Assembly: GCA_951406725.2 (NCBI GenBank)
Contig: OX597843.1
Coordinates: 15,500,001 to 15,564,000, forward strand
From: Octopus vulgaris
Lineage: Eukaryota
Direction of reading: 5' to 3'
DNA length: 64,000 bases
Shown: piece after piece, positions 4,165 to 29,596 of the stretch
How the letters are laid out: every line of letters starts with the position of its first letter
Position numbering within the stretch: the first letter of the stretch is position 1
Program-made: the position numbers and the translations under genes
The notes under the pieces: generated by a model
Seen by the model: the letters and a program-made list of their open reading frames with translations, nothing else
Database searches by the model: none
Told to the model about the DNA's origin: nothing

Positions 4165-4236
4165 AATCCCTTTAAATTTGAAAGCCCCGTGAATGTACCT
4201 TCATTGATGGTTGGAATGCTATTGCTCCAAAGAGCT
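4165..4236 (-). CDS. LRR exon 8 of 8 in transcript order: (L)ALWSNSIPTINEGTFTGLSNLKG(L)
   Basis: 72 nt, cag| acceptor, |gtaagt donor, phase 2-2; fits the extracellular LRR consensus LxLxxNxIxxIxxxxFxGLxxLxxL. Confidence 0.92.
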
Positions 4237-6323
4237 CTGTGGTAGTAAAGAAAGAGTAAAATAGATTATATTGAAAATATTTGTGATACGACATCAAACG
4301 CTGTGACTTCAGAATGAAAGGAAGAAAAGGCAGAAAGATAACGAAGAAGAAAAGGAAGAAGAAGAAGGAGGAGGAGGAGGAGGCGAAGAAGAAGAAAAAG
4401 AAGAAGAAGAATTAGTAGAAGAAGAAAGGAGAAGAAGGAGAAGAAAAAGAAGAGGAAGAAGGAATAGGAGGAAAAAGTAGGAGGAGGATGGTAAAAGGGA
4501 AGAAGTAGTAGCGGAAAAAGTAAAAGAAGAAGAAGGAGGAGGAGGAGGATGACAAGTAGATGAAAAAGTAGAAAGAAGAAGAAGAAGGTAGAGGAGGAAA
4601 AAGGAGGAGGAGGAGAATGATGGGGAAGAATAAGTAGGAGAAGATGAAAAAGAAGAAGAAGATGAAGGAGGAGGGGGATGAGAATAACAAAAAGAAGAAG
4701 AAAGAGGAGTAGGAGGAAAAGGAGAAGAAGAAGAATTAGAAGAAGACGCAGAAGAAGAAGAAGAAAAAGAAGCGGGAGAGGAGGGGGAGGAGGAGAATTA
4801 CAAGAAAAAAAGGAGGAGGAGGGGCGGAGAGGATTGGGAAGAAAGAAAGGAGAGGAAAAAAGAAGTAGAAGAAGGAAGAGGAAAAAGGAGGAGGAAGCAA
4901 TGAAGGGGAAAAGTAGGAGTAGAAGAAAAAAAAGAAGAATAAAAAGAAGGAGGAGGAGGAGTAGTTGAAATAATTGAAAGTAGAAGAGGATGTAGGAGAA
5001 GAAGAAGAAGAAATATGTAGAAGCGAGAGAAGAATAAAAGAATAAGGAGAAGGAGAAGAAAAAGAAGAAGAAGAAGAAGAAGACGAAGAAGGAGAAGAAG
5101 AAGAAGAAAAACGAGCAGGAGAGGAGGGGAGGAGGAGAATTACAAGAAGAAAAATGAGGAGGAGGGGCGGAGTGGAGGGGAGAGAATTTAAAGAAGAAAA
5201 TGAAGAATAAGAAGAAGAAAGAAATTAGAAGAGGAAGAAGGAGTAAGGGGAGTAGAAGTAGAAGAAAAGGAAAAGAAGAGAAGAAGAAGAAGAAGAAGAA
5301 GAAGAAGAAGAAGAAGAAGAAGAAGAAGAAGAAGAAGAAGAAGAAGAAGAAGAAGAAGAAGAAGAAGAAGAAGAAGAAGAAGAAGAAGAAGAAGAAGAGT
5401 GAGGAGAAGAAGAAGAAGACGAAGAAGATACATTGAAAATTATGGCGTTCAAGATGAAACTGAAAATGTTCTTAAAATATCAGGAAATAATTCAAGGAGA
5501 GAACGAAAAATTTTGGGCGAGGAGACATGGCTGAAAAATCAGGGAATATACGGAATCAGAAATCAACATATTCAAATGCACTCATACACATTCTTATATT
5601 CATAGTATCAACGACGGAATGCGGTATGCACACTCACATCACACATATTCCCACTCACCCTTGTGGAAATATGGTGAGAGAGATTATTTATTTCATATCG
5701 CTTCATTGTCACAAGAATATTAGAAAACACACGCTTACAAGAAATATATCAGCAGTTTAATTGTATCAGGCCAAATATTGCAGCTTACAAGTACAGTAAG
5801 TATTTCAGGTTTACAGATAGAATGTATGTGACTATATTTTTTGAATTTATATTTTCCGCTTCCACTTCAGTTGCTCTATTACATAAATAACGGGAAGTGA
5901 ATGACACATTTCACACACAGAACTACACTTATATATGAACATACACATATACTTCAGCTAAAAATATTTGATGCAAACATGTAAACTCACAAACGTTACC
6001 ATTTCTAATACAAATTCATATCAAAATCATTGAAATTTGGGGAACAAAAATGAGTTATTGAGATGCGAATTGAAACAAAGCAACTACAATAAAGGAACAT
6101 TATATTTTTCCTATTATTTCACTTTCACTCTCAAATTCTCTCTCTTTCTTTCACATTGTCTCGCATTCTCATATTCTCTTTGTATATTCCTAAATCGTGT
6201 TCATTCTACACATTTGAATTGATTTTGTTTGGTTCAGTCTGAAATTTTATACAATTGTGAGCTTATATATCAGCATCAATTATTACTTTCGGAAAATAGT
6301 ATCAAGAAACTGAAGGAACTTAC

Positions 6324-6395
6324 AATTGTTTTAAATTTGAAAGCCCCGTAAATGCACCTTCTTTGATGGTTGAAATGTTGTTCCCTCGCAGATCT
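6324..6395 (-). CDS. LRR exon 7: (L)DLRGNNISTIKEGAFTGLSNLKQ(L)
   Basis: 72 nt, tag| acceptor, |gtaagt donor, open frame, LRR consensus. Confidence 0.92.
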
Positions 6396-7584
6396 CTATA
6401 GCAGTAAAGAAAGAGTAAAATAGATTATATGGAAAATATTTGTGATACAACATCAAACACTGTGACTTGAGAATGAAAGGAAGAAAGAGAAGAAAGATAA
6501 CGAAGAAGAAAAGGAAGAAGAAGAAGGAAGAGGAGGAGGCGAAGAAGAATTAGAAGAAGAAAGGAGAAGAGGTAGAAGAAAAGGAAGAGCAAGAAGGAAT
6601 AGGAGGAAAAAGGAGGAGGAGGCTGATAAAAGGGAAGAAGATGTAGGAGAAAAAGTAAAAGAAGAAGAAGGAGGGAGAGGAAGAGGAGGAGGAGGAGGGG
6701 GAGGAGGAGGAGGAAGAAAATAACAAGAAGAAGAAGATAAGAATAAGAAAGACGAGGAAGAAGAGGAGGAGAAGTAGATGAAGAAGTAGAAAGAAGAAAG
6801 GAGAAGAAGAAGAAGAAGAAGAAGAAGAAGAAGAAGAAGAAGAAGAAGAAGACGAAAAAGAAGGAGGATGAGGAGGGGGAGGGGAAGAAGAAGAATTGCA
6901 AGAAGAAGGAAGGGAAGAACAAGAAGAAGAAGACGTAGAAGAAGTTGAAGCAGGAAAAAGAAGATGAAGAAGAAGAAGGAGGAGGAGGAGGAGGAGGAGA
7001 AGGAGAAAGAGAATAACAAAAACAGAAGTTAAGAAGGAGAAGGAGGAGGAGGAGAAGATGTAGAAGAAGAAGAAGAAGAAGGAAGAGGAGGAAAAAGGAG
7101 GAGGAGTAGGAGTAAGAAGGGGAGAATAAGTAGGAGAAGATGAAAAAGAAGAAGATGAAGGAGGAGGAGGATGAGAATAACAAAAAGAAGAATATAAGAA
7201 GAAAGAGGGGTAGGAGGAGAAGTAGATGTAGAAGTAGAAAGAAGAAGAATATAAGAAGAAAAAAAAGAAATAGAAGAATGAGAAGAAGAAAAGAAAAAGA
7301 AGGAGGAGGAGGAAAAGAAGAAGAAGAATTAGAAGAAGAAGCAGAAGAAGAAGAAAAGGAGCAGGGGTGGAAGGGAGGAGGAGAATTACAAGAAGAAAAA
7401 GGAGGAGGAGGGGCGGAGAGGATTGGGTAGAAAAAAGAAGATGAAAAAAGAAGTAGAAGAAGGAAGAGGAAAAAGGAGGAGGAAGAGGATGATAGGGAAA
7501 AAGTAGGTGTAGAAGAAAAAGAATAAGAATAAGAATAAGAAGAAGGAGGAGGAAGGGTAGATGAAGAAGTTGAAAGTAGAAGAA

Positions 7585-7619
<35 letters not shown>

Positions 7620-9096
7620 CGAAGAAGAAGAAGAAGAAGACGGAGAAGAAAAAGAAGAAAAAAGAAAAGGAGCAGGAGAGGCGGGGGAGGAAGAGAATTA
7701 CAAGAAGAAATAGGAGGAGGAGGGGCGGAGTGGAGGGGGAAGAGAATTTAAAGAAGAAAATGAAGAATAATAATAAGAAAAAAATTAGAAGAGGAAGGAG
7801 AAGGAGGACCAGGAGGATGAGGTGAAATAGAAGAAAAAGAAAAGAAGAGAAGAAGAAGAAGAAGATGAAGTAAAAGTGGAAGAAGAAGAAGAAGAAGAAG
7901 AAGAAGAAGAAGAAGAAGAAGAAGAAGAAGAAGAAGAAGGAGGAGGAGGCAGAAGACGAAATGACAAAAAGATGATGAAAAAGGCAGAGAAGGAGAAGTA
8001 GAATAAGAAAAAGAACAAAAAGAAGAAGAAGGAGAAGAAGAAGAAGAAGAAGAAGAAGAAGAAGAAGAAGAAGAAGAAGAAGAAGAAGAAGACGAAGAAG
8101 AAGACACATTGAAAATCATGGTGTTTAAGATGAAACTGAAAATATTTACGAAATATCAGGAAATAATTCAAGGATAGAATGAAAAATTTTGGGCGAAAAG
8201 ACATGGCTGAAAAATCAGGGAATATACGGAATCAGAAATCTACATATTCAAATGCACTCATACACATTCTTATATTCATAGTATCAACGACGGAATGCGC
8301 TATGCACACTCACATCACACATATTCCCACTCACCCTTGTGGAAATATGGTGAGAGAGATTATTTATTTCATATCGCTTCATTGTCACAAGAATATTAGA
8401 AAACACACGCTTACAAGAAATATATCAGCAGTTTAATTGTATCAGGCGAAATATTCCAGCTTACAAGTACAGTAAGTATTTCAGGTTTACAGATAGAATG
8501 TATGTGACTATATTATTCGAATATATATTTTCCGCTTCCACTTCAGTTGCTCTCTTACATAAATAACGTGAAGTGAATGATAAAATTCGAAATTGTGTGA
8601 TAATATCGAAACACGAAGGAGAATATTGAAATAATAAATGGAGGAGGATGTGAAATATAAAATAAAAGAATAATATATTCACGTTTCACACAGAACTACA
8701 CATATATATGAACATACACATATACTTCAGCTAAAAATATTTGATGCAAACATGTAAACTCACAAACGTTACCATTTCTAATACAAATTCATATCAAAAT
8801 CATTGAAATTTGTGGAACAAAACTGAGTTATTGAGATGCGAATTGAAACAAAGCAACTACAATAAAGGAACATTATATTTTTCCTATTATTTCACTTTCT
8901 ACCTCAATTTCTCTCTCTTTCTCTCTTTGTGTCTCGCTTACTTACTCCCTCTTTGTATCTTCCTAAATCGTGTTCATTCTACAAATTCGAATTCATTTTG
9001 TTTGATGGAGTCTGAAATTTTATACAATTGTGAGCTTATATATCAGCATCAATTATTACTTTCGGAAAATAGTATCAAGAAACTGAACGAACTTAC

Positions 9097-9168
9097 AATT
9101 CTTTTAAATTTGAAAGCCCCGTAAATGCACCTTCTTTGATGGTTGCAATGTTGTTCGCTCGCAGATAT
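9097..9168 (-). CDS. LRR exon 6: (L)YLRANNIATIKEGAFTGLSNLKE(L)
   Basis: 72 nt, tag| acceptor, |gtaagt donor, open frame, LRR consensus. Confidence 0.92.
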
Positions 9169-10361
9169 CTATAGCAGTAAAGAAAGAGTAAAATAGATTA
9201 CATGGAAAATATTTGTGATGCGACATCAAACACTGTGACTTGAGAATGAAAGGAAGAAAGAAGAAGAAAGATAACGAAGAAGAAAAGGAAGAAGAAGAAG
9301 GAAGAGGAGGAGGCGAAGAAGAATTAGAAGAAGAAAGGAGAAGAGGTAGAAGAAAAAGAAGAGCAAGAAGGAATAGGAGGAAAAAGGAGGAGGAGGCTGA
9401 TAAAAGGGAAGAAGATGTAGGAGAAAAAGTAAAAGAAGAAGAAGAAGGAAGGGGAGGAGGAGGAAAGAGAATAACAAGAAGAAGAAGATAAGAATAAGAA
9501 AGACGAGGAAGAGGAGGAGGAGAAGTAGATGAAGAAGTAGAAAGAAGAAAGAAGAAGAAGAAGAAGAAGGAGAAGAAGAAGGAGAAGAAGAAGAAGAAGA
9601 AGAAGACGAAAAAGAAGGAGGATGAGGAGGGGGAGGAGGAAGAAGAAGAATTGCAAGAAGAAGGAAGGGAAGAACAAGAAGAAGAAGACGTAGAAGAATT
9701 TGAAGCAGGAAAAAGAAGAAGAAGATGAAGAAGAAGAAGGAGGAGGAGGAGGAGGAGGAGAAGGAGAAAGAGAATAACAAAAACAGAAGTTAAGAAGAAG
9801 GAGGAGGAGGAGAAGATGTAGAAGAAGAAGAAGAAGAAGGAAGAGGAGGAAAAAGGAGGAGGAGTAGGAGTAAGAAGGGGAGAATAAGTAGGAGAAGATG
9901 AAAAAGAAGAAGAAGATGAAGGAGGAGGAGGAGGAGGAGGATGAGAATAACAAAAAGAAGAATATAAGAAGAAAGAGGGGTAGGAGGAGAAGTAGATGTA
10001 GAAGTAGAAAGAAGAAGAAGAATATAAGAAGAAAAAAAAGAAATAGAAGAATGAGAAGAAGAAAAGAAAAAGAAGGAGGAGGAGGAAAAGAAGAAGAAGA
10101 AGAAGAAGAAGAAGAGAAGAAGAAGAAAAAGGAGCAGGAGTGGAAGGGAGGAGGAGAATTACAAGAAGAAAAAGGAGGAGGAGGGGCGGAGAGGATTGGG
10201 TAGAAAAAAGAAGATGAAAAAAAGAAGTAGAAGAAGGAAGAGGAAAAAGGAGGAGGAAGAGGATGATAGGGAAAAAGTAGGTGTAGAAGAAAAAGAATAA
10301 GAATAAGAATAAGAAGAAGGAGGAGGAGGAAGGGTAGATGAAGAAGTTGAAAGTAGAAGAA

Positions 10362-10396
<35 letters not shown>

Positions 10397-11984
10397 CGAA
10401 GAAGAAGAAGAAGAAGACGGAGAAGAAAAAGAAGAAAAAAGAAAAAGGAGCAGGAGAGGAGGGGGAGGAAGAGAATTACAAGAAGAAATAGGAGGAGGAG
10501 GGGCGGAGTGGAGGGGGAAGAGAATTTAAAGAAGAAAATGAAGAATAATAATAAGAAAAAAATTAGAAGAGGAAGGAGGAGGAGGACCAGGAGGAGGAGG
10601 AGGAGGACCAGGAGGAGGACGAGGACCAGGAGGAGGAGGAGGACCAGGAGGAGTAGGAGGACCAGGAGGAGGAGGACCAGGAGGAGGAGGAGGACCAGGA
10701 GGAGGAGGAAGACAAGGAGGAGGAAGACCAGGAGGAGGAGGAGGTGAAATAGAAGAAAAGAAGAAAGAAGAAGAAGAAGAAGAAGAAGAAGAAGAAGAAG
10801 AAGAAGAAGAAGAAGGAGGAGGAGGCAGAAGACGAAATGACAAAAAGATGATGAAAAAGGCAGAGAAGGAGAAGTAGAATAAGAAAAAGAACAAGAAGAA
10901 GAAGGAGAAGAAGAAGAAGAAGAAGAAGAAGAAGAAGAAGAAGAAGAAGAAGAAGAAGAAGAAGAAGAAGAAGAAGAAGACGAAGAAGAAGACACATTGA
11001 AAATCATGGTGTTTAAGATGAAACTGAAAATATTTTCGAAATATCAGGAAATAATTCAAGGATAGAATGAAAAATTTTGGGCGAAAAGACATGGCTGAAA
11101 AATCAGGGAATATACGGAATCAGAAATCAACATATTCAAATGCACTCATACGCATTCTTATATTCATAGTATCAACGACGGAATGCGGTATGCACACTCA
11201 CATCACACATATTCCCACTCACCCTTGTGGAAATATGGTGAGAGAGATTATTTATTTCATATCGCTTCATTGTCACAAGAATATTAGAAAACACACGCTT
11301 ACAAGAAATATATCAGCAGTTTAATTGTATCAGGCCAAATATTCCAGCTTACAAGTACAGTAAGTATTTCAGGTTTACAGATAGAATGTATGTGACTATA
11401 TTATTCGAATATATATTTTCCGCTTCCACTTCAGTTGCTCTATTACATAAATAACGTGAAGTGAATGACAAAATTCGAAGTTGTGTGATAATATCGAAAC
11501 ACGAAGGAGAATATTGAAATAAGAAATGGAGGAGGATGTAAAATATAAAATAAAGGAATAATATAGTCACATTTCACACAGAACTACACTTATATATGAA
11601 CATACACATATACTTCAGCTAAAAATATTTGATGCAAACATGTAAACTCACAAACGTTACCATTTCTAATACAAATTCATATCAAAATCATTGAAATTTG
11701 GGGAACAAAAATGAGTTATTGAGATGCGAATTGAAACAAAGCAACTACAATAAAGGAACATTATATTTTTCCTATTATTTCACTTTCTCTCTCAAATTCT
11801 CTCTCTTTCTTTCACATTGTCTCGCTCTCTCATATTCTCTTTGTATATTCCTAAATCGTGTTCATTCTACAAATTTGAATTGATTTTGTTTGGTTCAGTC
11901 TGAAATTTTATACAATTGTGAGCTTATATATCAGCATCAATTATTACTTTCGGAAAATAGTATCAAGAAACTGAACGAACTTAC

Positions 11985-12056
11985 AATTCTTTTAAATTTG
12001 AAAGCCCCGTAAATGCACCTTCTGGGATGGTTGCAATGCTGTTCGCTCCAAGATAT
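11985..12056 (-). CDS. LRR exon 5: (L)YLGANSIATIPEGAFTGLSNLKE(L)
   Basis: 72 nt, tag| acceptor, |gtaagt donor, open frame, LRR consensus. Confidence 0.92.
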
Positions 12057-14835
12057 CTATAGCAGTAAAGAAAGAGTAAAATAGATTATATGGAAAATAT
12101 TTGTGATACAACATCAAACACTGTGACTTGAGAATGAAAGGAAGAAAAAGAAGAAAGATAACGAAGAAGAAAAGAAGAAGAAGAAGGAAGAGGAGGAGGC
12201 GAAGAAGAATTAGAAGAAGAAAGGAGAAGAGGTAGAAGAAAAAGAAGAGCAAGAAGGAATAGGAGGAAAAAGGAGGAGGAGGCTGATAAAAGGGAAGAAG
12301 ATGTAGGAGAAAAAGTAAAAGAAGAAGAAGGAGGGGGAGGAGGAGGAGGAAGAGAATAACAAGAAGAAGAAGATAAGAATAAGAAAGACGAGGAAGAAGA
12401 GGAGGAGAAGTAGATGAAGAAGTAGAAAGAAGAAAGGAGAAGAAGAAGAAGAAGGAGAAGAAGAAGGAGAAGAAGAAGAAGAAGAAGAAGAAGACGAAAA
12501 AGAAGGAGGATGAGGAGGGGGAGTGGAAGAAGAAGAATTGCAAGAAGAAGGAAGGGAAGAACAAGAAGAAGAAGACGTAGAAGAATTTGAAGCAGGAAAA
12601 AGAAGAAGAAGATGAAGAAGAAGAAGGAGGAGGAGGAGGAGGAGAAGGAGAAAGAGAATAACAAAAACAGAAGTTAAGAAGGAGAAGGAGGAGGAGGAGA
12701 AGATGTAGAAGAAGAAGAAGAAGAAGGAAGAGGAGGAAAAAGGAGGAGGAGTAGGAGTATGAAGGGGGAGAATAAGTAGGAGAAGATGAAAAAGAAGAAG
12801 AAGATGAAGGAGGAGGAGGAGGATGAGAATAACAAAAAGAAGAATATAAGAAGAAGAAAGAGGGGTAGGAGGAGAAGTAGATAAAGAAGTAGAAAGAAGA
12901 AGAAGAATATAAGAAGAAAAAAAAGAAATAGAAGAATGAGAAGAAGAAAATAAAAAGAAGGAGGAGGAGGAAGAAGAAGAAGAATTAGAAGAAGAAGCAG
13001 AAGAAGAAGAAAAGGAGCAGGAGTGGAAGGGAGGAGGAGAATTACAAGAAGAAAAAGGAGGAGGAGGGGCGGAGAGGATTGGGTAGAAAAAAAGAAGATG
13101 AAAAAAAGAAGTAGAAGAAGGAAGAGGAAAAAGGAGGAGGAAGAGGATGATAGGGAAAAAGTAGGTGTAGAAGAAAAAGAATAAGAATAAGAATAAGAAG
13201 AAGGAGGAGGAGGAAGGGTAGATGAAGAAGTTGAAAGTAGAAGAAGAAGAAGAAGAAGAGAGAAGAAGAAGAAGAAGACGAAGAAGAAGAAGAAGACGGA
13301 GAAGAAAAAGAAGAAAAAGAAAAAGGAGCAGGAGAGGAGGGGGAGGAAGAGAATTACAAGAAGAAATAGGAGGAGGAGGGGCGGAGTGGAGGGGGAAGAG
13401 AATTTAAAGAAGAAAATGAAGAATAATAATAAGAAAAAAATTAGAAGAGGAAGGAGGAGGAGGGACCAGGAGGAGGAGGACCAGGAGGAGGAGGACCAGG
13501 AGAGGAGGAGGACCAGGAGGAGGAGGAGGACAGGAGGAGGAGGAGAAAAGAAGAAAAGAAAGAAGAAGAAGAAGAAGAAGAAGATGAAGTAGAAGTAGAA
13601 GAAAGAAAGAAGAAGAAGAAGAAGAAGAAGAAGAAGAAAGAGGAGGAGGAGGAGGCAGAAGACGAAATGACAAAAAGATGATGAAAAAGGCAGAGAAGGA
13701 GAAGTAGAATAAGAAAAAGAACAAGAAGAAGAAGAAGAAGAAGAAGAAGAAGAAGAAGAAGAAGAAGAAGAAGAAGAAGAAGAAGAAGAAGAAGAAGAAG
13801 AAGAAGAAGAAGAAGAAGAAGAAGAAGAAGAAGAAGAAGAAGACACATTGAAAATCATAGTGTTTAAGATGAAACTGAAAATATTTTCGAAATATCAGGA
13901 AATAATTCAAGGATAGAATGAAAAATTTTGGGCGAGAAGATATGGCTGAAAAATCAGGGAATATACGGAATCAGAAATCAACATATTCAAATGCACTCAT
14001 ACGCATTCTTATATTCATAGTATCAACGACGGAATGCGGTATGCACACTCACATCACACATATTCCCACTCACCCTTGTGGAAATATGGTGAGAGAGATT
14101 ATTTATTTCATATCGCTTCATTGTCACAAGAATATTAGAAAACACACGCTTACAAGAAATATATCAGCAGTTTAATTGTATCAGGCCAAATATTCCAGCT
14201 TACAAGTACAGTAAGTATTTCAGGTTTACAGATAGAATGTATGTGACTATATTATTCGAATATATATTTTCCGCTTCCACTTCAGTTGCTCTATTACATA
14301 AATAACGTGAAGTGAATGACAAAATTCGAAGTTGAATGATAATATCGAAACACGAAGGAGAATATTGAAATAAGAAATGGAGGAGGATGTAAAATATAAA
14401 ATAAAGGAATAATATAGTCACATTTCACACAGAACTACACTTATATATGAACATACACATATACTTCAGCTAAAAATATTTGATGCAAACATGTAAACTC
14501 ACAAACGTTACCATTTCTAATACAAATTCATATCAAAATCATTGAAATTTGGGGAACAAAAATGAGTTATTGAGATGCGAATTGAAACAAAGCAACTACA
14601 ATAAAGGAACATTATATTTTTCCTATTATTTCACTTTCTCTCTCAAATTCTCTCTCTTTCTTTCACATTGTCTCGCTCTCTCATATTCTCTTTGTATCTT
14701 CCTAAATCGTGTTCATTCTACAAATTTGAATTGATTTTGTTTGGTTCAGTCTGAAATTTTATACATTTGTGAGCTTATATATCAGCATCAATTATCACTT
14801 TCAAAAAATAGTATCAAGAAACTGAACGAACTTAC

Positions 14836-14907
14836 AAGGAGTTTAAATTTGAAAGCCCCGTAAATGCACCTTCTGTGATGGTTGCAATGTTGTTCCGTTG
14901 CAGAGCT
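14836..14907 (-). CDS. LRR exon 4: (L)ALQRNNIATITEGAFTGLSNLNS(L)
   Basis: 72 nt, tag| acceptor, |gtaagt donor, open frame, LRR consensus. Confidence 0.92.
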
Positions 14908-17589
14908 CTATAGCAGTAAAGAAAGAGTAAAATAGATTATATGGAAAATATTTGTGATACAACATCAAACACTGTGACTTGAGAATGAAAGGAAGAAAAA
15001 GAAGAAAGATAACGAAGAAGAAAAGGAAGAAGAAGAAGGAAGAGGAGGAGGCGAAGAAGAATTAGAAGAAGAAAGGAGAAGAGGTAGAAGAAAAAGAAGA
15101 GCAAGAAGGAATAGGAGGAAAAAGGAGGAGGAGGCTGATAAAAGGGAAGAAGATGTAGGGAAAAAGTAAAAGAAGAAGGAGGAGAGGAAGAGGAGGAAGA
15201 GGAGGAAGAGGAGGAGGAGGAGGAAGAGAATAACAAGAAGAAGAAGATAAGAATAAGAAAGACGAGGAAGAGGAGGAGGAGAAGTAGATGAAGAAGTAGA
15301 AAGAAGAAAGGAGAAGAAGAAGAAGGAGAAGAAGAAGGAGAAGAAGAAGAAGAAGAAGAAGAAGACGAAAAAAAAGGAGGATGAGGAGGGGGAGTGGAAG
15401 AAGAAGAATTGCAAGAAGAAGGAAGGGAAGAACAAGAAGAAGAAGCCGTAGAAGAAGTTGAAGCAGGAAAAAAGAAGATGAAGAAGAAGAAGAAGAAGAA
15501 GAAGAAGAAGAAAAGAAGAAGAAGAAGAAGAAGAAGGAAGAGGAGGAAAAAGGAGGAGGAGTAGGAGTAAGAAGGGGAAGAATAAGTAGGAGAAGATGAA
15601 AAAGAAGAAGAAGATGAAGGATGAGGAGGATGAGAATAACAAAAAGAAGAATATAAGAAGAAAGAGGGGTAGGAGGAGAAGTAGATGTAGAAGTAGAAAG
15701 AAGAAGAAGAATATAAAAAGAAAAAAAAGAAACAGAAGAATGAGAAGAAGAAAAGAAAAAGAAGGAGGAGGAGGAAAAGAAGAAGAATTAGAAGAAGAAG
15801 CAGAAGAAGAAGAAAAGGAGCAGGAGTGGAAGGGAGGAGGAGAATTACAAGAAGAAAAAGGAGGAGGAGGGGCGGAGAGGATTGGGTAGAAAAAAAGAAG
15901 ATGAAAAAAAGAAGTAGAAGAAGGAAGAGGAAAAAGGAGGAGGAAGAGGATGATAGGAAAAAGTAGGTGTAGAAGAAAAAGAATAAGAAGAAGAATAAGA
16001 AGAAGGAGGAGGAGGAGGAGGAAGGGTAGATGAAGAAGTTGAAAGCAGAAGAAGAAGAAGAAGAAGAAGAGGAAGGGTAGATGAAGAAGAAGAAGACGAA
16101 GAAGAAGAAGAAGACGGAGAAGAAAAAGAAGAAAAAAGAAAAAGGAGCAGGAGTGGAAGGGAGGAAGAGAATTACAAGAAGAAATAGGAGGAGGAGGGGC
16201 GGAGTGGAGGGGGAAGAGAATTTAAAGAAGAAAATGAAGAATAATAAGAAGAAAAAAATTAGAAGAGGAAGGAGGAGGATGATCTGGAGTAGGACCAGGA
16301 GGAGGACCAGGAGGAGGAGGAGAAATAGAAGAAAAAGAAAAGAAGAGAAGAAGAAGAAGAAGAAGATGAAGTAGAAGTGGAAGAAGAAAAGAAGAAGAAG
16401 AAGAAGAAGAAGGAAAAGAAGGAGGAGGCAGAAGACGAAATGACAAAAAGATGATGAAAAAGGCAGAGAAAGAGAAGTAGAATAAGATAAAGAACAAAAA
16501 GAAGAAGGAGAAGAAGAAGAAGAAGAAGAAGAAGAAGAAGAAGAAGAAGAAGAAGAAGAAGAAGAAGAAGAAGAAGAAGAAGACGAAGAAGAAGACACAT
16601 TGAAAATCATGGTGTTTAAAGATGAAACTGAAAATAATATCGAAATATCAGGAAATAATTCAAGGATAGAATGAAAAATTTTGGGCGAAAAGACATGGCA
16701 GAAAAATCAGGGAATATACGGAATCAGAAATCTACATATTCAAATGCACTCATACACATTCTTATATTCATAGAATCAACGACGGAATGCGGTATGCACA
16801 CTTCACATCACACATATTCCCACTCACCCTTGTGGAAATATGGTGAGAGAGATTATTTATTTCATATCGCTTCATTGTCACAAGAATATTAGAAAACACA
16901 CGCTTACAAGAAATATATCAGCAGTTTAATTGTATCAGGCCAAATATTCCAGCTTACAAGTACAGTAAGTATTTCAGGTTTACAGATAGAATGTATGTGA
17001 CTATATTATTCGAATATATATTTTCCGCTTCCACTTCAGTTGCTCTATTACATAAATAACGTGAAGTGAATGACAAAATTCGAAGTTGAATGATAATATC
17101 GAAACACGAAGGAGAATATTGAAATAAGAAATGGAGGAGGATGTAAAATATAAAATAAAGGAATAATATAGTCACATTTCACACAGAACTACACTTATAT
17201 ATGAACATACACATATACTTCAGCTAAAAATATTTGATGCAAACATGTAAACTCACAAACGTTACCATTTCTAATACAAATTCATATCAAAATCATTGAA
17301 ATTTGGGGAACAAAAATGAGTTATTGAGATGCGAATTGAAACAAAGCAACTACAATAAAGGAACATTATATTTTTCCTATTATTTCACTTTCTCTCTCAA
17401 ATTCTCTCTCTTTCTTTCACATTGTCTCGCTCTCTCATATTCTCTTTGTATATTCCTAAATCGTGTTCATTCTACAAATTTGAATTGATTTTGTTTGGTT
17501 CAGTCTGAAATATTATACATTTGTGAGCTTATATATCAGCATCAATTATTACTTTCGGAAAATAGTATCAAGAAACTGAACGAACTTAC

Positions 17590-17661
17590 AATACGTTTAA
17601 ATTTGAAAGCCCCGTGAATGCTCCTTCTTTGATGGTTGCAATGTTGTTCCCTTCAAGATCT
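17590..17661 (-). CDS. LRR exon 3: (L)DLEGNNIATIKEGAFTGLSNLNV(L)
   Basis: 72 nt, tag| acceptor, |gtaagt donor, open frame, LRR consensus. Confidence 0.92.
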
Positions 17662-20171
17662 CTATAGCAGTAAAAAAAGAGTAAAATAGATTATATGGAA
17701 AATATTTGTGATACAACATCAAACACTGTAACTTGAGAATGAAAGGAAGAAAAAGAAGAAAGATAACGAAAAAGAAAAGGAAGAAGAAGAAGGAAGAGGA
17801 GGAGGCGAAGAAGAATTAGAAGAAGAAAGGAGAAGAGGTAGAAGAAAAGAAGAGCAAGAAGGAATAGGAGGAAAAAGGAGGAGGAGGCTGATAAAAGGGA
17901 AGAAGATGTAGGAGAAGGAGGGGAGGAGGAGGAGGAAGAGAATAACAAGAAGAAGAAGATAAGAATAAGAAAGACGAGGAAGAGGAGGAGGAGAAGTAGA
18001 TGAAGAAGTAGAAAGAAGAAAGGAGAAGAAGAAGAAGAAGGAGAAGAAGAAGGAGAAGAAGAAGAAGAAGAAGACGAAAAAGAAGGAGGATGAGGAGGGG
18101 GAGGGGAAGAAGAAGAATTGCAAGAAGAAGGAGAAGAAGAAGAAGAAGAAGAAGAAGAAGTTGAAGCAGGAAAAAGAAGAAGAAGATGAAGGAGGAGGAG
18201 GAGGAGGAGGAGAATAACAAAAAGAAGAATATAAGAAGAAGAAAGAGGGATAGGAGGAGAAGTAGATAAAGAAGTAGAAAGAAGAAGAAGAATATAAGAA
18301 GAAAAAAAAGAAATAGAAGAATGAGAAGAAGAAAAGAAAAAGAAGGAGGAGGAGGAAAAGAAGAAGAAGAATTAGAAGAAGAAGCAGAAGAAGAAGAAAA
18401 GGAGCAGGAGTGGAAGGGAGGAAGAGAATTAGAAGAAGAAAGAGGAGGAGGAGGGGCGGAGAGGATTGGGTAGAAAAAAGAAGATGAAAAAAAGAAGGAA
18501 GAAGGAAGAGGAAAAAGGAGGAGGAAGATGATGATGGGGAAAAAGTAGGTGTAGAAGAAAAAGAATAAGAATAAGAATAAGAAGAAGGAGGAGGAGGAGG
18601 AAGGGAAGATGAAGAAGTTGAAAGTAGAAGAAGAAGAAGAAGAAGAGGAAGAAGAAGAAGACGAAGAATAAGAAGACGAAGAAGAAGAATAATAAGAAGA
18701 AGACGGAGAAGAAAAAGAAGAAAAAAAAAGGAGCAGGAGAGGAGGGGGAGGAAGAGAATTACAAGAAGAAATAGGGGGAGGAGGGGCAGAGTAGAGGGGG
18801 AAGAGAATTTAAAGAAGAAAATGAAGAATAATAATAAGAAAAATATTAGAAGAGGAAGGAGGAGGAGGACCAGGAGGAGGAGGAGGACCAGGAGGAGGAG
18901 GAGGAGGAGGTGAAATAGAAGAAAAAGAAAAGAAGAAGAAGAAGAAGAAGAAGTAGATAAAGTAGAAGTGGAAGAAAGAAAAGAAGAAGAAGAAGAAGAA
19001 GAAGAAGAAGAAGGAGGAGGAGGAGGCAGAAGACGAAATGACAAAAAGATGATGAAAAAGGCAGAGAAGGAGAAGTAGGATAAGAAAAAGAACAAAGAAG
19101 AAGAAGAAGAAGAAGAAGAAGAAGAAGAAGAAGAAGAAGAAGAAGAAGAAGAAGAAGAAGAAGAAGAAGAAGAAGAAGACCCATTGAAAATCATGGTGTT
19201 TAAGATGAAACTGAAAATATTTTCGAAATATCAGGAAATAATTCAAGGATAGAATGAAAAATTTTGGGCGAGAAGACATGGCAGAAAAATCAGGGAATAT
19301 ACGGAATCAGAAATCAACATATTCAAATGCACTCATACGCATTCTTATATTCATAGTATCAACGACGGAATGCGGTATGCACACTCACATCACACATATT
19401 CCCACTCACCCTTGTGGAAATATGGTGAGAGAGATTATTTATTTCATATCGCTTCATTGTCACAAGAATATTAGAAAACACACGCTTACAAGAAATATAT
19501 CAGCAGTTTAATTGTATCAGGCCAAATATTCCAGCTTACAAGTACAGTAAGTATTTCAGGTTTACAGATAGAATGTATGTGACTATATTATTCGAATATA
19601 TATTTTCCGCTTCCACTTCAGTTGCTCTATTACATAAATAACGTGAAGTGAATGACAAAATTCGAAGTTGAATGATAATATCGAAACACGAAGGAGAATA
19701 TTGAAATAAGAAATGGAGGAGGATGCAAAATATAAAATAAAGGAATAATATAGTCACATTTCACACAGAACTACACTTATATATGAACATACACATATAC
19801 TTCAGCTAAAAATATTTGATGCAAACATGTAAACTCACAAACGTTACCATTTCTAATACAAATTCATATCAAAATCATTGAAATTTGGGGAACGAAAATG
19901 AGTTATTGAGATGCGAATTGAAACAAAGCAACTACAATAAAGGAACATTATATTTTTCCCATTATTTCACTTTCTCTCTCAAATTCTCTCTCTTTCTTTC
20001 ACATTGTCTCGCTCTCTCATATTCTCTTTGTATATTCCTAAATCGTGTTCATTCTACAAATTTGAATTAATTTTGTTTAGTTCAGTCTGAAATATTATAC
20101 ATTTGTGAGCTTATATATCAGCATCAATTATTACTTTCGGAAAATAGTATCAAGAAACTGAACGAACTTAC

Positions 20172-20243
20172 AATACGTTTAAATTTGAAAGCCCCGTGAA
20201 TGCTCCTTCTTTGATGGTTGCAATGTTGTTCCCTTCAAGATCT
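20172..20243 (-). CDS. LRR exon 2: (L)DLEGNNIATIKEGAFTGLSNLNV(L)
   Basis: 72 nt with canonical splice sites; nucleotide-identical to the exon at 17590-17661. Confidence 0.92.
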
Positions 20244-23000
20244 CTATAGCAGTAAAGAAAGAGTAAAATAGATTATATTGAAAATATTTGTGATACAACA
20301 TCAAACACTGTGACTTGAGAATGAAAGGAAGAAAAAGAAGAAAGATAACGAAAAAAGAAAAGGAAGAAGAAGAAGGAAGAGGAGGAGGCGAAGAAGAATT
20401 AGAAGAAGAAAGGAGAAGAGGTAGAAGAAAAAGAAGAGCAAGAAGGAATAGGAGGAAAAAGGAGGAGGAGGCTGATAAAAGGGAAGAAGATGTAGGAGAA
20501 AAAGAAAAAGAGAAGGAGAAGGAGGAGGAAGAGAATAACAAGAAGAAGATAAGAATAAGAAAGACGAGGAAGAGGAGGAGGAGAAGTAGATGAAGAAGTA
20601 GAAAGAAGAAGAAGAAGAAGAAGAAGAAGAAGAAGAAGAAGAAGAAGAAGACGAAAAAGAAGGAGGATGAGGAGGGGGAGGGGAAGAAGAAGAATTGCAA
20701 GAAGAAGGAAGGGAAGAAGAAGAAGAAGACGTAGTAGAAGTTGAAGCAGGAAAAAGAAGAAGAAGATGAAGAAGAAGGAGGAGGAGGAGGAGGAGGAGAA
20801 GGAGAAAGAGAATAACAAAAACAGAAGTTAAGAAGGAGAAGGAGGAGGAGGAGAAGATGTAGGAGAAGAAGAAGAAGAAGAAGGAAGAGGAGGAAAAAGG
20901 AGGAGGAGTAGGAGTAAGAAGGGGAGAATAAGTAGGAGAAGATGAAAAAGAAGAAGAAGATGAAGGAGGAGGAGGAGGAGGAGGAGAATAACAAAAAAGA
21001 AGAAGAAGAAGAAGAAGAAGAAGAAGAGGTAGGAGGAGAAGTAGATAAAGAAGTAGAAAGAAGAAGAAGAATATAAGAAGAAAAAAAAGAAATAGAAGAA
21101 TGAGAAGAAGAAAACAAAAAAGAAGGAGGAGGAGGAAAAGAAGAAGAAGAATTAGAAGAAGAAGCAGAAGAAGAAGAAAAGGAGCAGGAGTGGAAGGAGG
21201 AAGAGAATTAGAAGAAGAAAGAGGAGGAGGAGGGGCGGAGAGGATTGGGTAGAAAAAAGAAGATGAAAAAAAAGAAGTAGAAGAAGGAAGAGGAAAAGGA
21301 GGAGGAAGAGGATGATAGGGAAAAAGTAGGTGTAGAAGAAAAAGAATAAGAATAAGAATAAGAAGAAGGAGGAGGAGGAGGAAGGGTAGATGAAGAAGTT
21401 GAAAGTAGAAGAAGAAGAAGAGGAAGAAGAAGAAGACGAAGAAGAAGAAGAAGAAGAAGACGAAGAAGAAAAAGAAGAAAAAAGAAAAAGGAGCAGCAGA
21501 GGAGGGGAGGAGGAGAATTACAAGAAGAAATAGGAGGAGGAGGGGCGGAGTGGAGGGGGAAGAGAATTTAAAGAAGAAAATGAAGAATAATAATAAGAAA
21601 AAAATTAGAAGTGGAAGGAGGAGGAGGTCCAGGAGGAGGAGGAGGACCAGGAGGAGGAGGAGGACCAGGAGGAGGAGGAGGTGAAATAGAAGAAAAAGAA
21701 AAGAAAAGAAGAAGAAGAAGATGAAGTAGATGAATTAGAAGTGGAAGAAAGAAAAGAAGAAGAAGAAGAAGAAGAAGAAGAAGAAGAAGAAGAAGAAGGA
21801 GAAGGAGGCAGAAGACGAAATGACAAAAAGATGATGAAAAAGGCAGAGAAGGTGAAGTAGCATAAGAAAAAGTACAAAAAGAAGAAGAAGGAGAAGAAGA
21901 AGAAGAAGAAGAAGAAGAAGAAGAAGAAGAAGAAGAAGAAGAAGAAGAAGAAGAAGAAGAAGAAGAAGAAGAAGAAGAAGAAGAAGAAGAAGAAGAAGAA
22001 GAAGAAGACACATTGAAAATCATGGTGTTTAAGATGAAACTGAAAATATTTTCGAAATATCAGGAAATAATTCAAGGATAGAATGAAAAATTTTGGGCGA
22101 AAAGACATGGCTGAAAAATCAGGGAATATACGGAATCAGAAATCAACATATTCAAATGCACTCATACGCATTCTTATATTCATAGTATCAACGACGGAAT
22201 GCGGTATGCACACTCACATCACACATATTCCCACTCACCCTTGTGGAAATATGGTGAGAGAGATTATTTATTTCATATCGCTTCATTGTCACAAGAATAT
22301 TAGAAAACACACGCTTACAAGAAATATATCAGCAGTTTAATTGTATCAGGCCAAATATTCCAGCTTACAAGTACAGTAAGTATTTCAGGTTTACAGATAG
22401 AATGTATGTGACTATATTATTCGAATATATATTTTCCGCTTCCACTTCAGTTGCTCTATTACATAAATAACGTGAAGTGAATGACAAAATTCGAAGTTGA
22501 ATGATAATATCGAAACACGAAGGAGAATATTGAAATAAGAAATGGAGGAGGATGTAAAATATAAAATAAAGGAATAATATAGTCACATTTCACACAGAAC
22601 TACACTTATATATGAACATACACATATACTTCAGCTAAAAATATTTGATGCAAACATGTAAACTCACAAACGTTACCATTTCTAATACAAATTCATATCA
22701 AAATCATTGAAATTTGGGGAACAAAAATGAGTTATTGAGATGCGAATTGAAACAAAGCAACTACAATAAAGGAACATTATATTTTTCCTATTATTTCACT
22801 TTCTCTCTCAAATTCTCTCTCTTTCTTTCACATTGTCTCGCTCTCTCATATTCTCTTTGTATCTTCCTAAATCGTGTTCATTCTACAAATTTGAATTGAT
22901 TTTGTTTAGTTCAGTCTGAAATATTATACATTTGTGAGCTTATATATCAGCATCAATTATTACTTTCGGAAAATAGTATCAAGAAACTGAACGAACTTAC

Positions 23001-23072
23001 AATACGTTTAAATTTGAAAGCCCCGTAAATGCTCCTTCTTTGATGGTTGAAATGTTGTTCCCTTCAAGATCT
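23001..23072 (-). CDS. LRR exon 1: (L)DLEGNNISTIKEGAFTGLSNLNV(L)
   Basis: 72 nt, tag| acceptor, |gtaagt donor; phase-compatible with the signal-peptide/LRRNT exon (TT|A = Leu). Confidence 0.92.
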
Positions 23073-25376: not shown

Positions 25377-25761
25377 TTAGCAGTGTCGCCCGGCGTTGCT
25401 CAGGTTTGTAAGGGAAATAACTATAAAGCATTTTTAGAGAGTTATAGCCAAAAAATAGCAAAAAAATGGAAAAAAAATTATGGTAAATTTTTTTTGAGAG
25501 TTAAAAAAGCTGGAGTTGCGTCCCCTAGACGGTCTGTGGTTTGGGTTTCTGATTCTCGACCCCATGTCGAATTTATCGATTTTTTTCAGAACTGGGGGAA
25601 CTTTTCAAAATTTTCGCTGCGTTACTTTTGAATTATGACATTGGGCTATGTGTGTGTCAAGTTTCATCAGAATCGGTTGAAAGCCGTGGTCAGGGTGAGG
25701 GTACAACCTAACAGACACACAGAAACACACACAGACAAACTGCCGTTTATATAGAGAGAGA
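25377..25761 (-). mobile_element. Non-autonomous Helitron-like element (copy 1)
   Basis: On the minus strand it starts TCTCTCTCTATATAAACGGCAG and ends with the GC hairpin cctgagcaacgccggg plus CTAA (degenerate CTAG). It is the reverse complement of 29226-29597. Confidence 0.75.
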
Positions 25762-25944
25762 TATCTGTCTCACAAGTATTGGAGATCTTGCAGGAGTTAT
25801 AAAACTTGTCTGATCCTTTCTCCAAAATCGCTAAAATAAAAAGTGTGGAATTTTAACTCAGGTCACAGACAACTGGACAATATACTGCAAGGTGTCTTAT
25901 TCGAGGTCCTCATAGTTGCATTTGTTCATTGAACTGTTATGGTT

Positions 25945-27428: not shown

Positions 27429-27619
27429 AAATATTCAACATTCGTCGGAATTGGTTGTGGAATTGATAGTAAATTGCGACGTGCACAATTTATTTCCGTT
27501 GTAAGTGAATTGCAATTACATGTGTTGCATATATCTGAATCAGCTTGAGTCTCCAAAAACAATATCGTACACAGTATCAACGCAAGAGACCGTCTATATG
27601 ATACTACGTGGTGAAACAT
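27429..27619 (-). CDS. First coding exon of a secreted or cell-surface LRR protein: signal peptide + LRRNT cap
   Basis: Encodes MFHHVVSYRRSLALILCTILFLETQA-DSDICNTCNCNSLTTEINCARRNLLSIPQPIPTNVEY(L): a hydrophobic leader, then CxxCxC...INC...LxxIPxxIP (LRRNT). Acceptor (t)11acag| lies just upstream of 27639, leaving 20 nt before the ATG; donor TT|gtaagt is phase 2. Confidence 0.92.
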
Positions 27620-28165
27620 ATTGCCAGGCGTAGATTTATCTGTAAAAAAAAAAGGAAATGTCAGAGATTTCAATGTTATTAACTTCAAATTGCAGATTCT
27701 CCGAAGCAACTAAAATTCACCCCTGGTCCACATGACAAATATATTTTTGTTTTCGTGATTGGATATTTAAAGCTAAAAAATTAAATTTCGATAAATTAGT
27801 GTGAAGAAATTTATAAAAATATTATAGCTTTAACGCGTAATAATATCAAAGAAAACACCAAACACACACACACAAACACAAACGCACTCCTACACACATC
27901 TGTAACCATCTTCGGGGGTGGGGTCTAATATATTTACAAAACTAGTGAACCATGAGTTTCGTAGACCCTAAATACGCAGTGGTTGTAAACCCGGTTGGGT
28001 CGTTAAATCCGATGGGACCCCACAAGCAACTGTATGGTAACAAAGGATTTTTCCTGTACCCCAGTTTTAGAAGCGTTCATACAAAGTTTTCCTTAAATGA
28101 ACTATCATGATTTCATTTTACTTATTTTTTTTTTACTGAAAACAAGAATAAAGCATGAACGTAAA

Positions 28166-29199: not shown

Positions 29200-29225
<26 letters not shown>

Positions 29226-29230
<5 letters not shown>

Positions 29231-29596
29231 ATATATAAACGGCAGTTTGTCTGTGCGTGTTTCTGTGTGTCTGTTTTCTCGTACCCTCACTCTGACCACG
29301 GCTTTCAACCGATTCTGATGAAACTTGACACACACATAGCCCAATGTCATAATTCAAAACTAACGCAGCGAAAATTTTGAAAAGTTCCCCCAGTTCTGAA
29401 AAAAATCGATAAATTTGACATGGGGTCGAAAATGAGAAACCCAAACCACAGACCGTCTAGGGGACGCAACTCCACCTGTTTTAACTCTCAAAAAAAATTT
29501 ACCATCATTTTTTTTCTATTTTTTGGCTATAACTCTCTAAAAATGCTTTATAGTTATTTCCCTTACAAACCTGAGCAACGCCGGGCGATACTGCTA

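Follow-up and report, generated by a model that had tools for sequence, protein, structure and literature searches.

The stretch analysed here (the window) spans 64,000 nucleotides (nt) of the 2.8-Gb genome of Octopus vulgaris (G000:C30:15500001-15564000) and holds, on its minus strand, an array of eight repeated exons, each encoding one leucine-rich repeat (LRR) of a putative adhesion G-protein-coupled receptor (GPCR). The eight cassettes were located by a 16-nt anchor and lie 2159-2888 nt apart. Each exon is 72 nt long, bounded by AG/GT and open in a single frame, with a phase-2 intron interrupting a leucine codon. In transcription order these are exon 1 (DLEG...NV, 23001..23072), whose ends are the joints seen in sequencing runs X2 and X17; exon 2 (DLEG...NV, 20172..20243); exon 3, identical to exon 2 (17590..17661); exon 4 (ALQR...NS, 14836..14907); exon 5 (YLGA...KE, 11985..12056), which has the same DNA as an exon at G000:C31:5035065 and is missing from gene model P0014; exon 6 (YLRA...KE, 9097..9168); exon 7 (DLRG...KQ, 6324..6395); and exon 8 (ALWS...KG, 4165..4236), the most divergent of the eight. 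A preliminary description of this DNA had listed an invariant scaffold (L, N, I, I, EG, FTGLSNL) and sets of variable residues around it; both are correct over the eight cassettes, and T9 is invariant in addition.

Exon 1 is followed by a unique intron block of ~980 nt (22020..23000), a 96-99% copy of which stands behind each of the other seven exons, and by a GAA/GGA-rich spacer (20319..22010) that is 92% purine on the plus strand. Further copies of the spacer lie at 4312-5430, 6471-8106, 9244-10994, 12132-13845, 14983-16597 and 17737-19181. At 1.1-1.75 kb, the spacer makes up more than half of each repeat unit. Spacers 2-7 show 1.7-3.4% substitutions and spacer 1 shows 6-8%; spacers 2-7 are also separated by 100-770 gap columns, so that their length is not uniform. 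R-loop- or triplex-driven recombination, which has reportedly been proposed for the sea-urchin SpTransformer repeats, was considered for these spacers.

An exon of the gene at 27429..27639 (minus strand; 100% identical to residues 1-64 of P0001) contains the ATG (27619), a signal peptide and the LRR N-terminal cap (LRRNT). The eight cassettes follow, and beyond the window, downstream, come a ninth, terminal LRR exon, the C-terminal cap (LRRCT), Cys-rich, SEA-like and GAIN exons, a GPS exon and exons for transmembrane helices 1 and 2 (TM1, TM2), the SEA-like label being our own reading of the strand-helix pattern in a predicted model. Two O. vulgaris gene models named 'adhesion GPCR G6-like', CAI9744462 and CAI9744463, match these exons and include two and seven of the eight cassettes, respectively. 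The window gene's GPS exon shares 98% identity with that of P0002, in which PF01825 scores E 1e-10, and the gene thus has the combination of GAIN and GPS by which adhesion GPCRs are defined. P0002, the nearest paralogue, has a complete seven-transmembrane (7TM) domain (7tm_2 E 7e-34), and the closest vertebrate 7TM matches are ADGRG2, at ~40%. The consensus for GPS self-cleavage is H-L|T/S. The window gene, P0002 and the Octopus sinensis protein P0135 instead read R-L|K at this point, which predicts that self-cleavage has been lost and that the GPS of all three proteins stays uncleaved. The DNA of the R-L|K GPS exon (L004:1686-1838 = G000:C30:15461686-15461838) is 100% identical at three more loci.

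The position of the gene in the receptor family was assessed with a GPS-7TM tree, rooted at its midpoint only, in which P0002 represented the window gene. P0002 fell inside a 100/100 octopus branch (16 octopus rows versus 10 others) together with A0A0L8HDZ7 and A0A0L8GYR2, which are LRR-bearing members of the published 'group 3', and 23 of the 26 rows carried H-L|T at the GPS. Judged by sequence, the exons are therefore part of an LRR adhesion-GPCR-family gene within the octopus-specific 'group 3' expansion, in which LRRs occur in 5 of 22 members and positive selection was reported at branch level (Ritschard et al. 2019, PMC6408891; sources cited by PMC number were available in part, and statements about them refer to that part).

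According to the preliminary description, the exons diverge more than their introns. When the cassette blocks were aligned and diversity was calculated in windows, exon diversity was not equalled by the intron. The mean pairwise difference over all 28 cassette pairs was 0.135 in the exon, 0.024 in the downstream intron (870 nt) and 0.046 over the 72 nt upstream of the exon, with a steep fall at both exon edges. Segregating sites numbered 22/72 in the exon versus 81/942 in the intron (Fisher p 4.5e-7), and none of 798 72-nt intron windows reached the exon value (maximum 0.085). The exon pair at 14836 and 17590, said to differ at 10 of 72 nt within flanks only a few percent apart, does differ at 10 positions, with 8 differences in 870 nt of intron (0.9%). 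There are exceptions to the contrast: the exons at 17590 and 20172 are identical and each is only 2 nt away from that at 23001, and the pair 6324/9097 differs by 5.6% in the exon and 5.2% in the intron.

The same cassettes occur elsewhere in the genome. A 27-nt donor flank was found in 69 exact copies on four contigs, and the stretches covering all of these contained 120 exon matches, 108 of them intact. Statistics were based on 63 cassettes with an intact exon whose intron matched over no less than 600 nt at 93% identity or more; 12 broken or partial matches (7 of young type) and 45 intact exons whose introns were older or shorter were left out. These 63 young cassettes encode 59 different peptides, and their diversity is 0.147 in the exon versus 0.031 in the intron. 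Twelve of 30 LRRNT-exon matches are at least 92% identical to that of the window, and at least 12 young paralogues hold ~70 cassettes. Indels of 1-2 nt were present in the exons of 7 of 70 young cassettes, often two per exon, compared with ~4 indels expected from the intron rate; these cassettes (G000:C31:4985966, 4997081, 5032141, 5043996, 5347442 and 6292287; C5:141894659) probably reflect consensus errors, and their exons garble gene model P0028.

A GPS exon lies within 100 kb downstream in only two of the 12 young paralogues (33 GPS matches; the counts are lower bounds). Two of the ten paralogues lacking it were read directly and free of gaps; in both, HormR-like exons lead to a short terminal exon, and GAIN, GPS and TM exons were looked for and not found. 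One O. sinensis gene model ends in the same manner, and the encoded products of this model and of the two directly read anchor-free paralogues are predicted to be secreted. Anchor-free paralogues with a second SEA-like block before the short terminal exon lie at G000:C31:3738854-3785801 and 5295442-5362902, and the terminal exon pair of an anchor-free paralogue is duplicated again near G000:C31:5278360-5279894.

Several further features of the family and of the locus were recorded. Some paralogues and O. sinensis proteins have a second LRR cassette class (…NKISRIEKEMFQGLHNLEK type; G000:C31:4220895 and C5:141899298) in alternation with the first, a class that is absent from the window gene. 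An inverted duplication within an array (G000:C5:141880930-141891849) sets two cassettes opposite two others with the same encoded peptides. The O. vulgaris protein P0122 ('MIB2-like') combines cassette-type LRRs with ankyrin repeats and is either a fusion or a merged model. At the LRRCT exon (L001:4195-4404 = G000:C30:15494195-15494404), O. vulgaris models are ~17 residues longer than O. sinensis models, probably through a miscalled acceptor. Within the window, a 387-nt element in inverted copies (25378-25764 and 29221-29596; 93%) flanks the LRRNT exon on both sides. Upstream of the receptor gene and outside it, positions 31700-64000 contain blocks of 1-4.4 kb in several copies at 88-98% identity, with open reading frames that by eye resemble fragments of long interspersed nuclear element (LINE) reverse transcriptase.

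Next to 8 of 23 codons that are invariant in amino acid over the 63 cassettes, codon 1 takes 10 amino acids, its third base never changing and no synonymous variant occurring, while codons 3, 4 and 23 take 11, 10 and 12. The first and second positions of these four codons carry 2.9 extra alleles on average; fourfold sites carry 0.9 and intron sites 0.4. The Dirichlet-multinomial method for per-codon omega (the ratio of nonsynonymous to synonymous rates), which originates in genomegaMap, does not use a tree; in our own implementation it gave omega values of 8, 20, 12 and 8 at codons 1, 3, 4 and 23, left the other 19 codons unflagged, and still returned 3-8 at the four after the mutation parameter theta was tripled. 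The site models M2a and M8 chose the same four codons with a posterior of 1.0 and a class omega of 3.6-4.1 (twice the log-likelihood difference, 84.6 for M2a versus M1a and 55.7 for M8 versus M8a). Codon 8 (S/A) was rejected as a candidate, having scored 0.97 and then 0.83 in M8 and being unsupported by M2a or the tree-free test. Over the whole exon, pN/pS is 0.77-0.88, below 1, with pS at 0.16-0.18; splitting pN/pS between concave and other codons has descriptive value only, as the sites were already known to be variable. The preliminary proposal of diversifying selection on the binding surface is thus supported for codons 1, 3, 4 and 23, where two independent methods place omega above 1, but not for codons 22 (N/K) and 6 (N/S), two of the six x positions named in that description. 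The statistical power came from the use of the multigene cassette pool; neither the gene nor the pool had been identified in that description.

To place the variable sites on a structure, we used an AlphaFold model of P0014 that is reliable over the LRRs only (mean pLDDT 51 overall, ~70-89 for residues 50-210). Its LRR strands lie on codons 23-L-1 and reach L-3 in two repeats, and the model predicts that the four selected codons fall on or beside the concave strand. It is established that the outward x positions of an LRR strand face the concave, ligand-binding side (PMC3900441). A young-type exon peptide recurs unchanged in an O. sinensis protein, a 5' motif is common to 7 of 13 O. sinensis units, and O. 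sinensis proteins vary at the same positions. The LRRNT, terminal LRR and LRRCT exons of the young paralogues mostly differ by 4-10% and their flanking introns mostly by 1-4%, so the exon-over-intron effect reaches past the cassettes.

The excess is not confined to selected sites. In the 18 other codons, synonymous exon diversity is 0.16, ~5-fold the intron level, and the probability that nine random intron sites match the fourfold-site value is 5e-5. The single-copy introns and upstream DNA of the young paralogues are 0.6-7.0% apart (29 alignments, median 2.0%). Since these are as close as the cassette introns, ~2-3% is the background of the whole genes, and the exon variants are older than their surroundings. 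The earlier suggestion that introns are homogenised is therefore supported, although the effect is not peculiar to cassette introns. Exon and intron distances are uncoupled (Mantel r 0.07, p 0.18), with the mean exon distance remaining at 0.14-0.16 throughout intron distances of 0.5% to 10%. For example, cassettes on separate contigs show 2/870 intron yet 8/72 exon differences, and different genes contain identical exons. All four gametes were present in 53 of 66 exon site pairs; within 20 nt, r2 was 0.06 in the exon versus 0.16 in the intron, where linkage decays over tens of bases.

In a toy model, run 18 times with 63 copies, gene conversion was combined with selection against erasing differences at the eight variable bases. 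The neutral control gave a synonymous diversity of 0.019; with selection and tracts averaging 300 nt, the value was 0.11-0.19 in four runs (observed 0.17), and diversity at 50-200 nt formed a shoulder of 0.04-0.06, compared with 0.056 in the data. Linkage was scored in two runs, which yielded an intron r2 of 0.16 and 42% four-gamete pairs within 20 nt, matching the data, and 30-nt tracts alone produced too small a synonymous excess. In these simulations ordinary conversion with selection thus suffices for most of the pattern, without being proof of it.

Sequencing runs from other studies provided further evidence. Most of a 1136-nt block is present in 20 of 24 listed runs from nine studies. 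Joints leading from one exon end back to the other end occur in X2 and X17, probable RNA runs by an automated guess (none of the listed runs is recorded as RNA), and were not seen in X6 and X13, the others of the four runs compared. The joints have the form expected of spliced cassette-to-cassette junctions at the predicted boundaries. Of 11 junctions read by eye, out of 17 rows, three match neighbours in the assembly, four pair the start of a known exon with a different neighbour, three have starts absent from the 108 exons and one is ambiguous. This mix would fit high allelic variation or exon skipping alike, since junctions from other animals do not distinguish skipping from allelic rearrangement; the gene models, for their part, include two or seven of the eight exons. 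In X6 and X13, exon variants at codons 2, 8, 13 and 15 recur, and so are not assembly errors, and only ~30 places along the 1136-nt stretch vary at a share of at least 10%.

On balance, we lean towards the interpretation that the exons encode the LRR arc of an adhesion-GPCR-family protein and form one pool of ~70 cassettes, shaped by conversion and four-codon selection and probably serving microbe recognition. It builds on the gene anatomy, cassette numbers, diversity contrast, exon-intron decoupling and exon-exon joints, all observed directly. Its genetic component is very probable, namely that cassettes and genes undergo conversion and unequal exchange in the germline while diversifying selection acts on four codons of the concave face. 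Non-allelic conversion in the germline, in tracts of roughly a few hundred bases, together with unequal crossing-over would homogenise the DNA, while conversions erasing differences at codons 1, 3, 4 or 23 would be selected against, and old synonymous variants would persist, trapped between the two variable ends of the exon. The intron splits each beta-strand, codon 23 coming from one exon and codons 1, 3 and 4 from the next, so that any swap, gain, loss or skipping of an exon would create a new strand and surface. That the ligand is foreign, sensed by 7TM members and bound by anchor-free paralogues in secreted form, appears reasonably likely. A microbial ligand is favoured by the youth and turnover of the genes, the strong selection, the predicted secreted forms, and the expression of group 3 in C. 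minor, chiefly in its gills and skin (PMC6408891).

A number of observations count against this interpretation. In O. bimaculoides, group 3 expression is highest in axial nerve cord and next in suckers and skin, a pattern that fits a neural role, and an earlier site test on 7TM-anchored alignments yielded no selected sites (PMC6408891). Our codon models are our own code, not codeml, tree-based tests are inflated by recombination, and all data are paralogues from one assembly, not population alleles. The toy model gives too much diversity in the 50 nt beside the exon (0.06-0.13, where the data have 0.025) and at the selected sites (0.76 instead of 0.59); the former may be explained by splice-signal constraint, because older paralogues diverge by 0.04-0.08 beside the exon vs 0.18 just beyond. 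In the window gene itself, one GAIN exon carries a 1-nt deletion relative to the paralogue, the TM2 exon is 12 nt short and is followed by a 100-N assembly gap, and TM3-7 were looked for in the next 75 kb and not found. The gene's own GPCR half is thus doubtful, with decay and assembly error both possible. A 318-nt match past the gap, considered as the paralogue's TM4-TM5 intron, was rejected as a dispersed repeat and is uninformative on the loss of TM3-7.

The same conversion and selection could instead act on a self ligand, the cassettes providing a cell-identity, wiring or allorecognition code in the arm nerve cord, suckers and skin. Protocadherins, Dscam and cnidarian Alr proteins are precedents for such self-recognition. 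The O. bimaculoides expression pattern and the wiring role proposed with it (PMC6408891) point in this direction, as do the best fold matches, to LRR proteins of the nervous system (Nogo receptor, NGL, LRIG1), though these are generic LRR arcs and any typical arc would match. However, very young genes (introns ~2% apart), fast turnover and omega values of 4-20 suit an arms race better, and most young paralogues seemingly lack a membrane anchor. We regard a self ligand as possible but rather unlikely. Less likely still is a bolder version of the microbe-recognition reading, in which an anticipatory system resembling the variable lymphocyte receptors (VLRs) evolved independently in octopus, with a few uncleaved membrane sensors and ~10 secreted antibody-like LRR proteins drawing on one germline-reshuffled cassette pool that is further recombined within the animal by exon skipping or somatic conversion.

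An exon-targeted diversifier that rewrites exons and spares introns, whether by RNA-templated conversion or by deaminase-driven or somatic shuffling, would be consistent with the steep drop in diversity at both exon edges, with the weaker linkage in the exon than in the intron, and with the 7 of 11 junctions from the probable RNA runs that differ by eye from assembly neighbours. Yet uniform conversion with selection reproduces most of the pattern unaided, the common exon variants are unskewed to A>G or C>T, and unmatched junctions are expected from alleles of other animals or from uncollected paralogues, all of which makes such a diversifier very improbable. Recent duplication without ongoing conversion, the exons having diverged through relaxed selection or a mutation hotspot, or the intron being under purifying selection, receives a similarly low probability. 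It accords with the closeness of the single-copy introns, with the 168 of 314 variable intron sites that are singletons, and with the elevated synonymous sites of the exon, but it should tie exon to intron distance and is largely refuted by their decoupling, by the coexistence of eight invariant with four saturated codons, and by an intron block that drifts to 11-12% divergence in older paralogues. An assembly artefact, in which polishing merged introns or scrambled exons, is extremely unlikely: consensus errors do occur in the arrays, as the indel-bearing cassettes indicate, but they would not concentrate on four in-frame codons, nor would they produce the variants shared with X6 and X13, runs from other studies, or the parallel variation in O. 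sinensis.

In joining an LRR ectodomain to a GAIN-7TM body, the octopus receptor resembles ADGRA2 and ADGRA3, this being the ADGRA architecture. Vertebrate ADGRA2/ADGRA3 and ADGRG-type receptors are single-copy and conserved, and are not known to carry hypervariable exon arrays. The young subfamily falls in the same clade as the group 3 of Ritschard et al. by the GPS-7TM tree, and differs in its R-L|K at the GPS, H-L|T being the motif in 23 of the 24 other tree rows; the available text of that paper contains no report of selected sites, one-LRR exon cassettes, conversion or anchor-free members (PMC6408891).

A parallel in exon design is that of the brown-algal ROCO proteins, proposed pathogen receptors in which each 72-nt phase-2 exon encodes one LRR and four concave-face sites are positively selected (PMC3341825, PMC11378527). 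The octopus cassettes share this design (108 of 120 matches intact), with selection at concave codons 1, 3, 4 and 23. However, ROCOs come from an unrelated lineage and are LRR-ROC-COR GTPases, whereas the octopus LRRs are extracellular on a GPCR chassis, and the ROC-COR GTPase Pfam family was absent from all five proteins scanned; the available portions of the two ROCO papers do not mention gene conversion or intron homogenisation (PMC3341825, PMC11378527). Lamprey and hagfish VLRs vary at the concave sheet of an LRRNT-LRR-LRRCT solenoid, exchange modules in a conversion-like manner and have secreted forms (PMC3900441). The octopus protein likewise has an extracellular LRRNT-LRR-LRRCT solenoid with a variable concave face; by contrast, VLRs are somatically assembled with cytidine deaminases (PMC3900441) from an incomplete germline gene, whereas the octopus germline gene is complete, its modules being intron-separated, in-frame, spliceable exons. 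For the red and green opsins of humans, divergence peaks at the selected exon 5 while introns are homogenised by conversion (PMC3924837), and the octopus exon-over-intron peak is this known signature of selection under conversion. The opsin case involves two copies and two fixed states, as opposed to ~70 cassettes in which the two ends of a 72-nt exon take dozens of states.

Both parts of the phenomenon are thus known elsewhere, in brown-algal ROCO exons and opsin conversion, and the group-3 clade is already published; for octopus or any adhesion GPCR, we found no account of the cassettes, selected sites, conversion or anchor-free paralogues in the literature searched, subscription journals being outside its coverage. 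Present annotation hides the family, since models omit exons and carry names such as 'ADGRG6-like' and 'slit-like'. A 2026 review of immune diversification, in its available text, gives FREPs for molluscs and names no variable-receptor family for cephalopods (PMC13428168). The octopus cassette family is a concrete candidate for one, with named codons and with membrane and predicted secreted forms. If this is true, an adhesion GPCR would be evolving in the way that resistance proteins of plants or algae do, and the design of one LRR per 72-nt exon with a variable concave face would have arisen independently once more.

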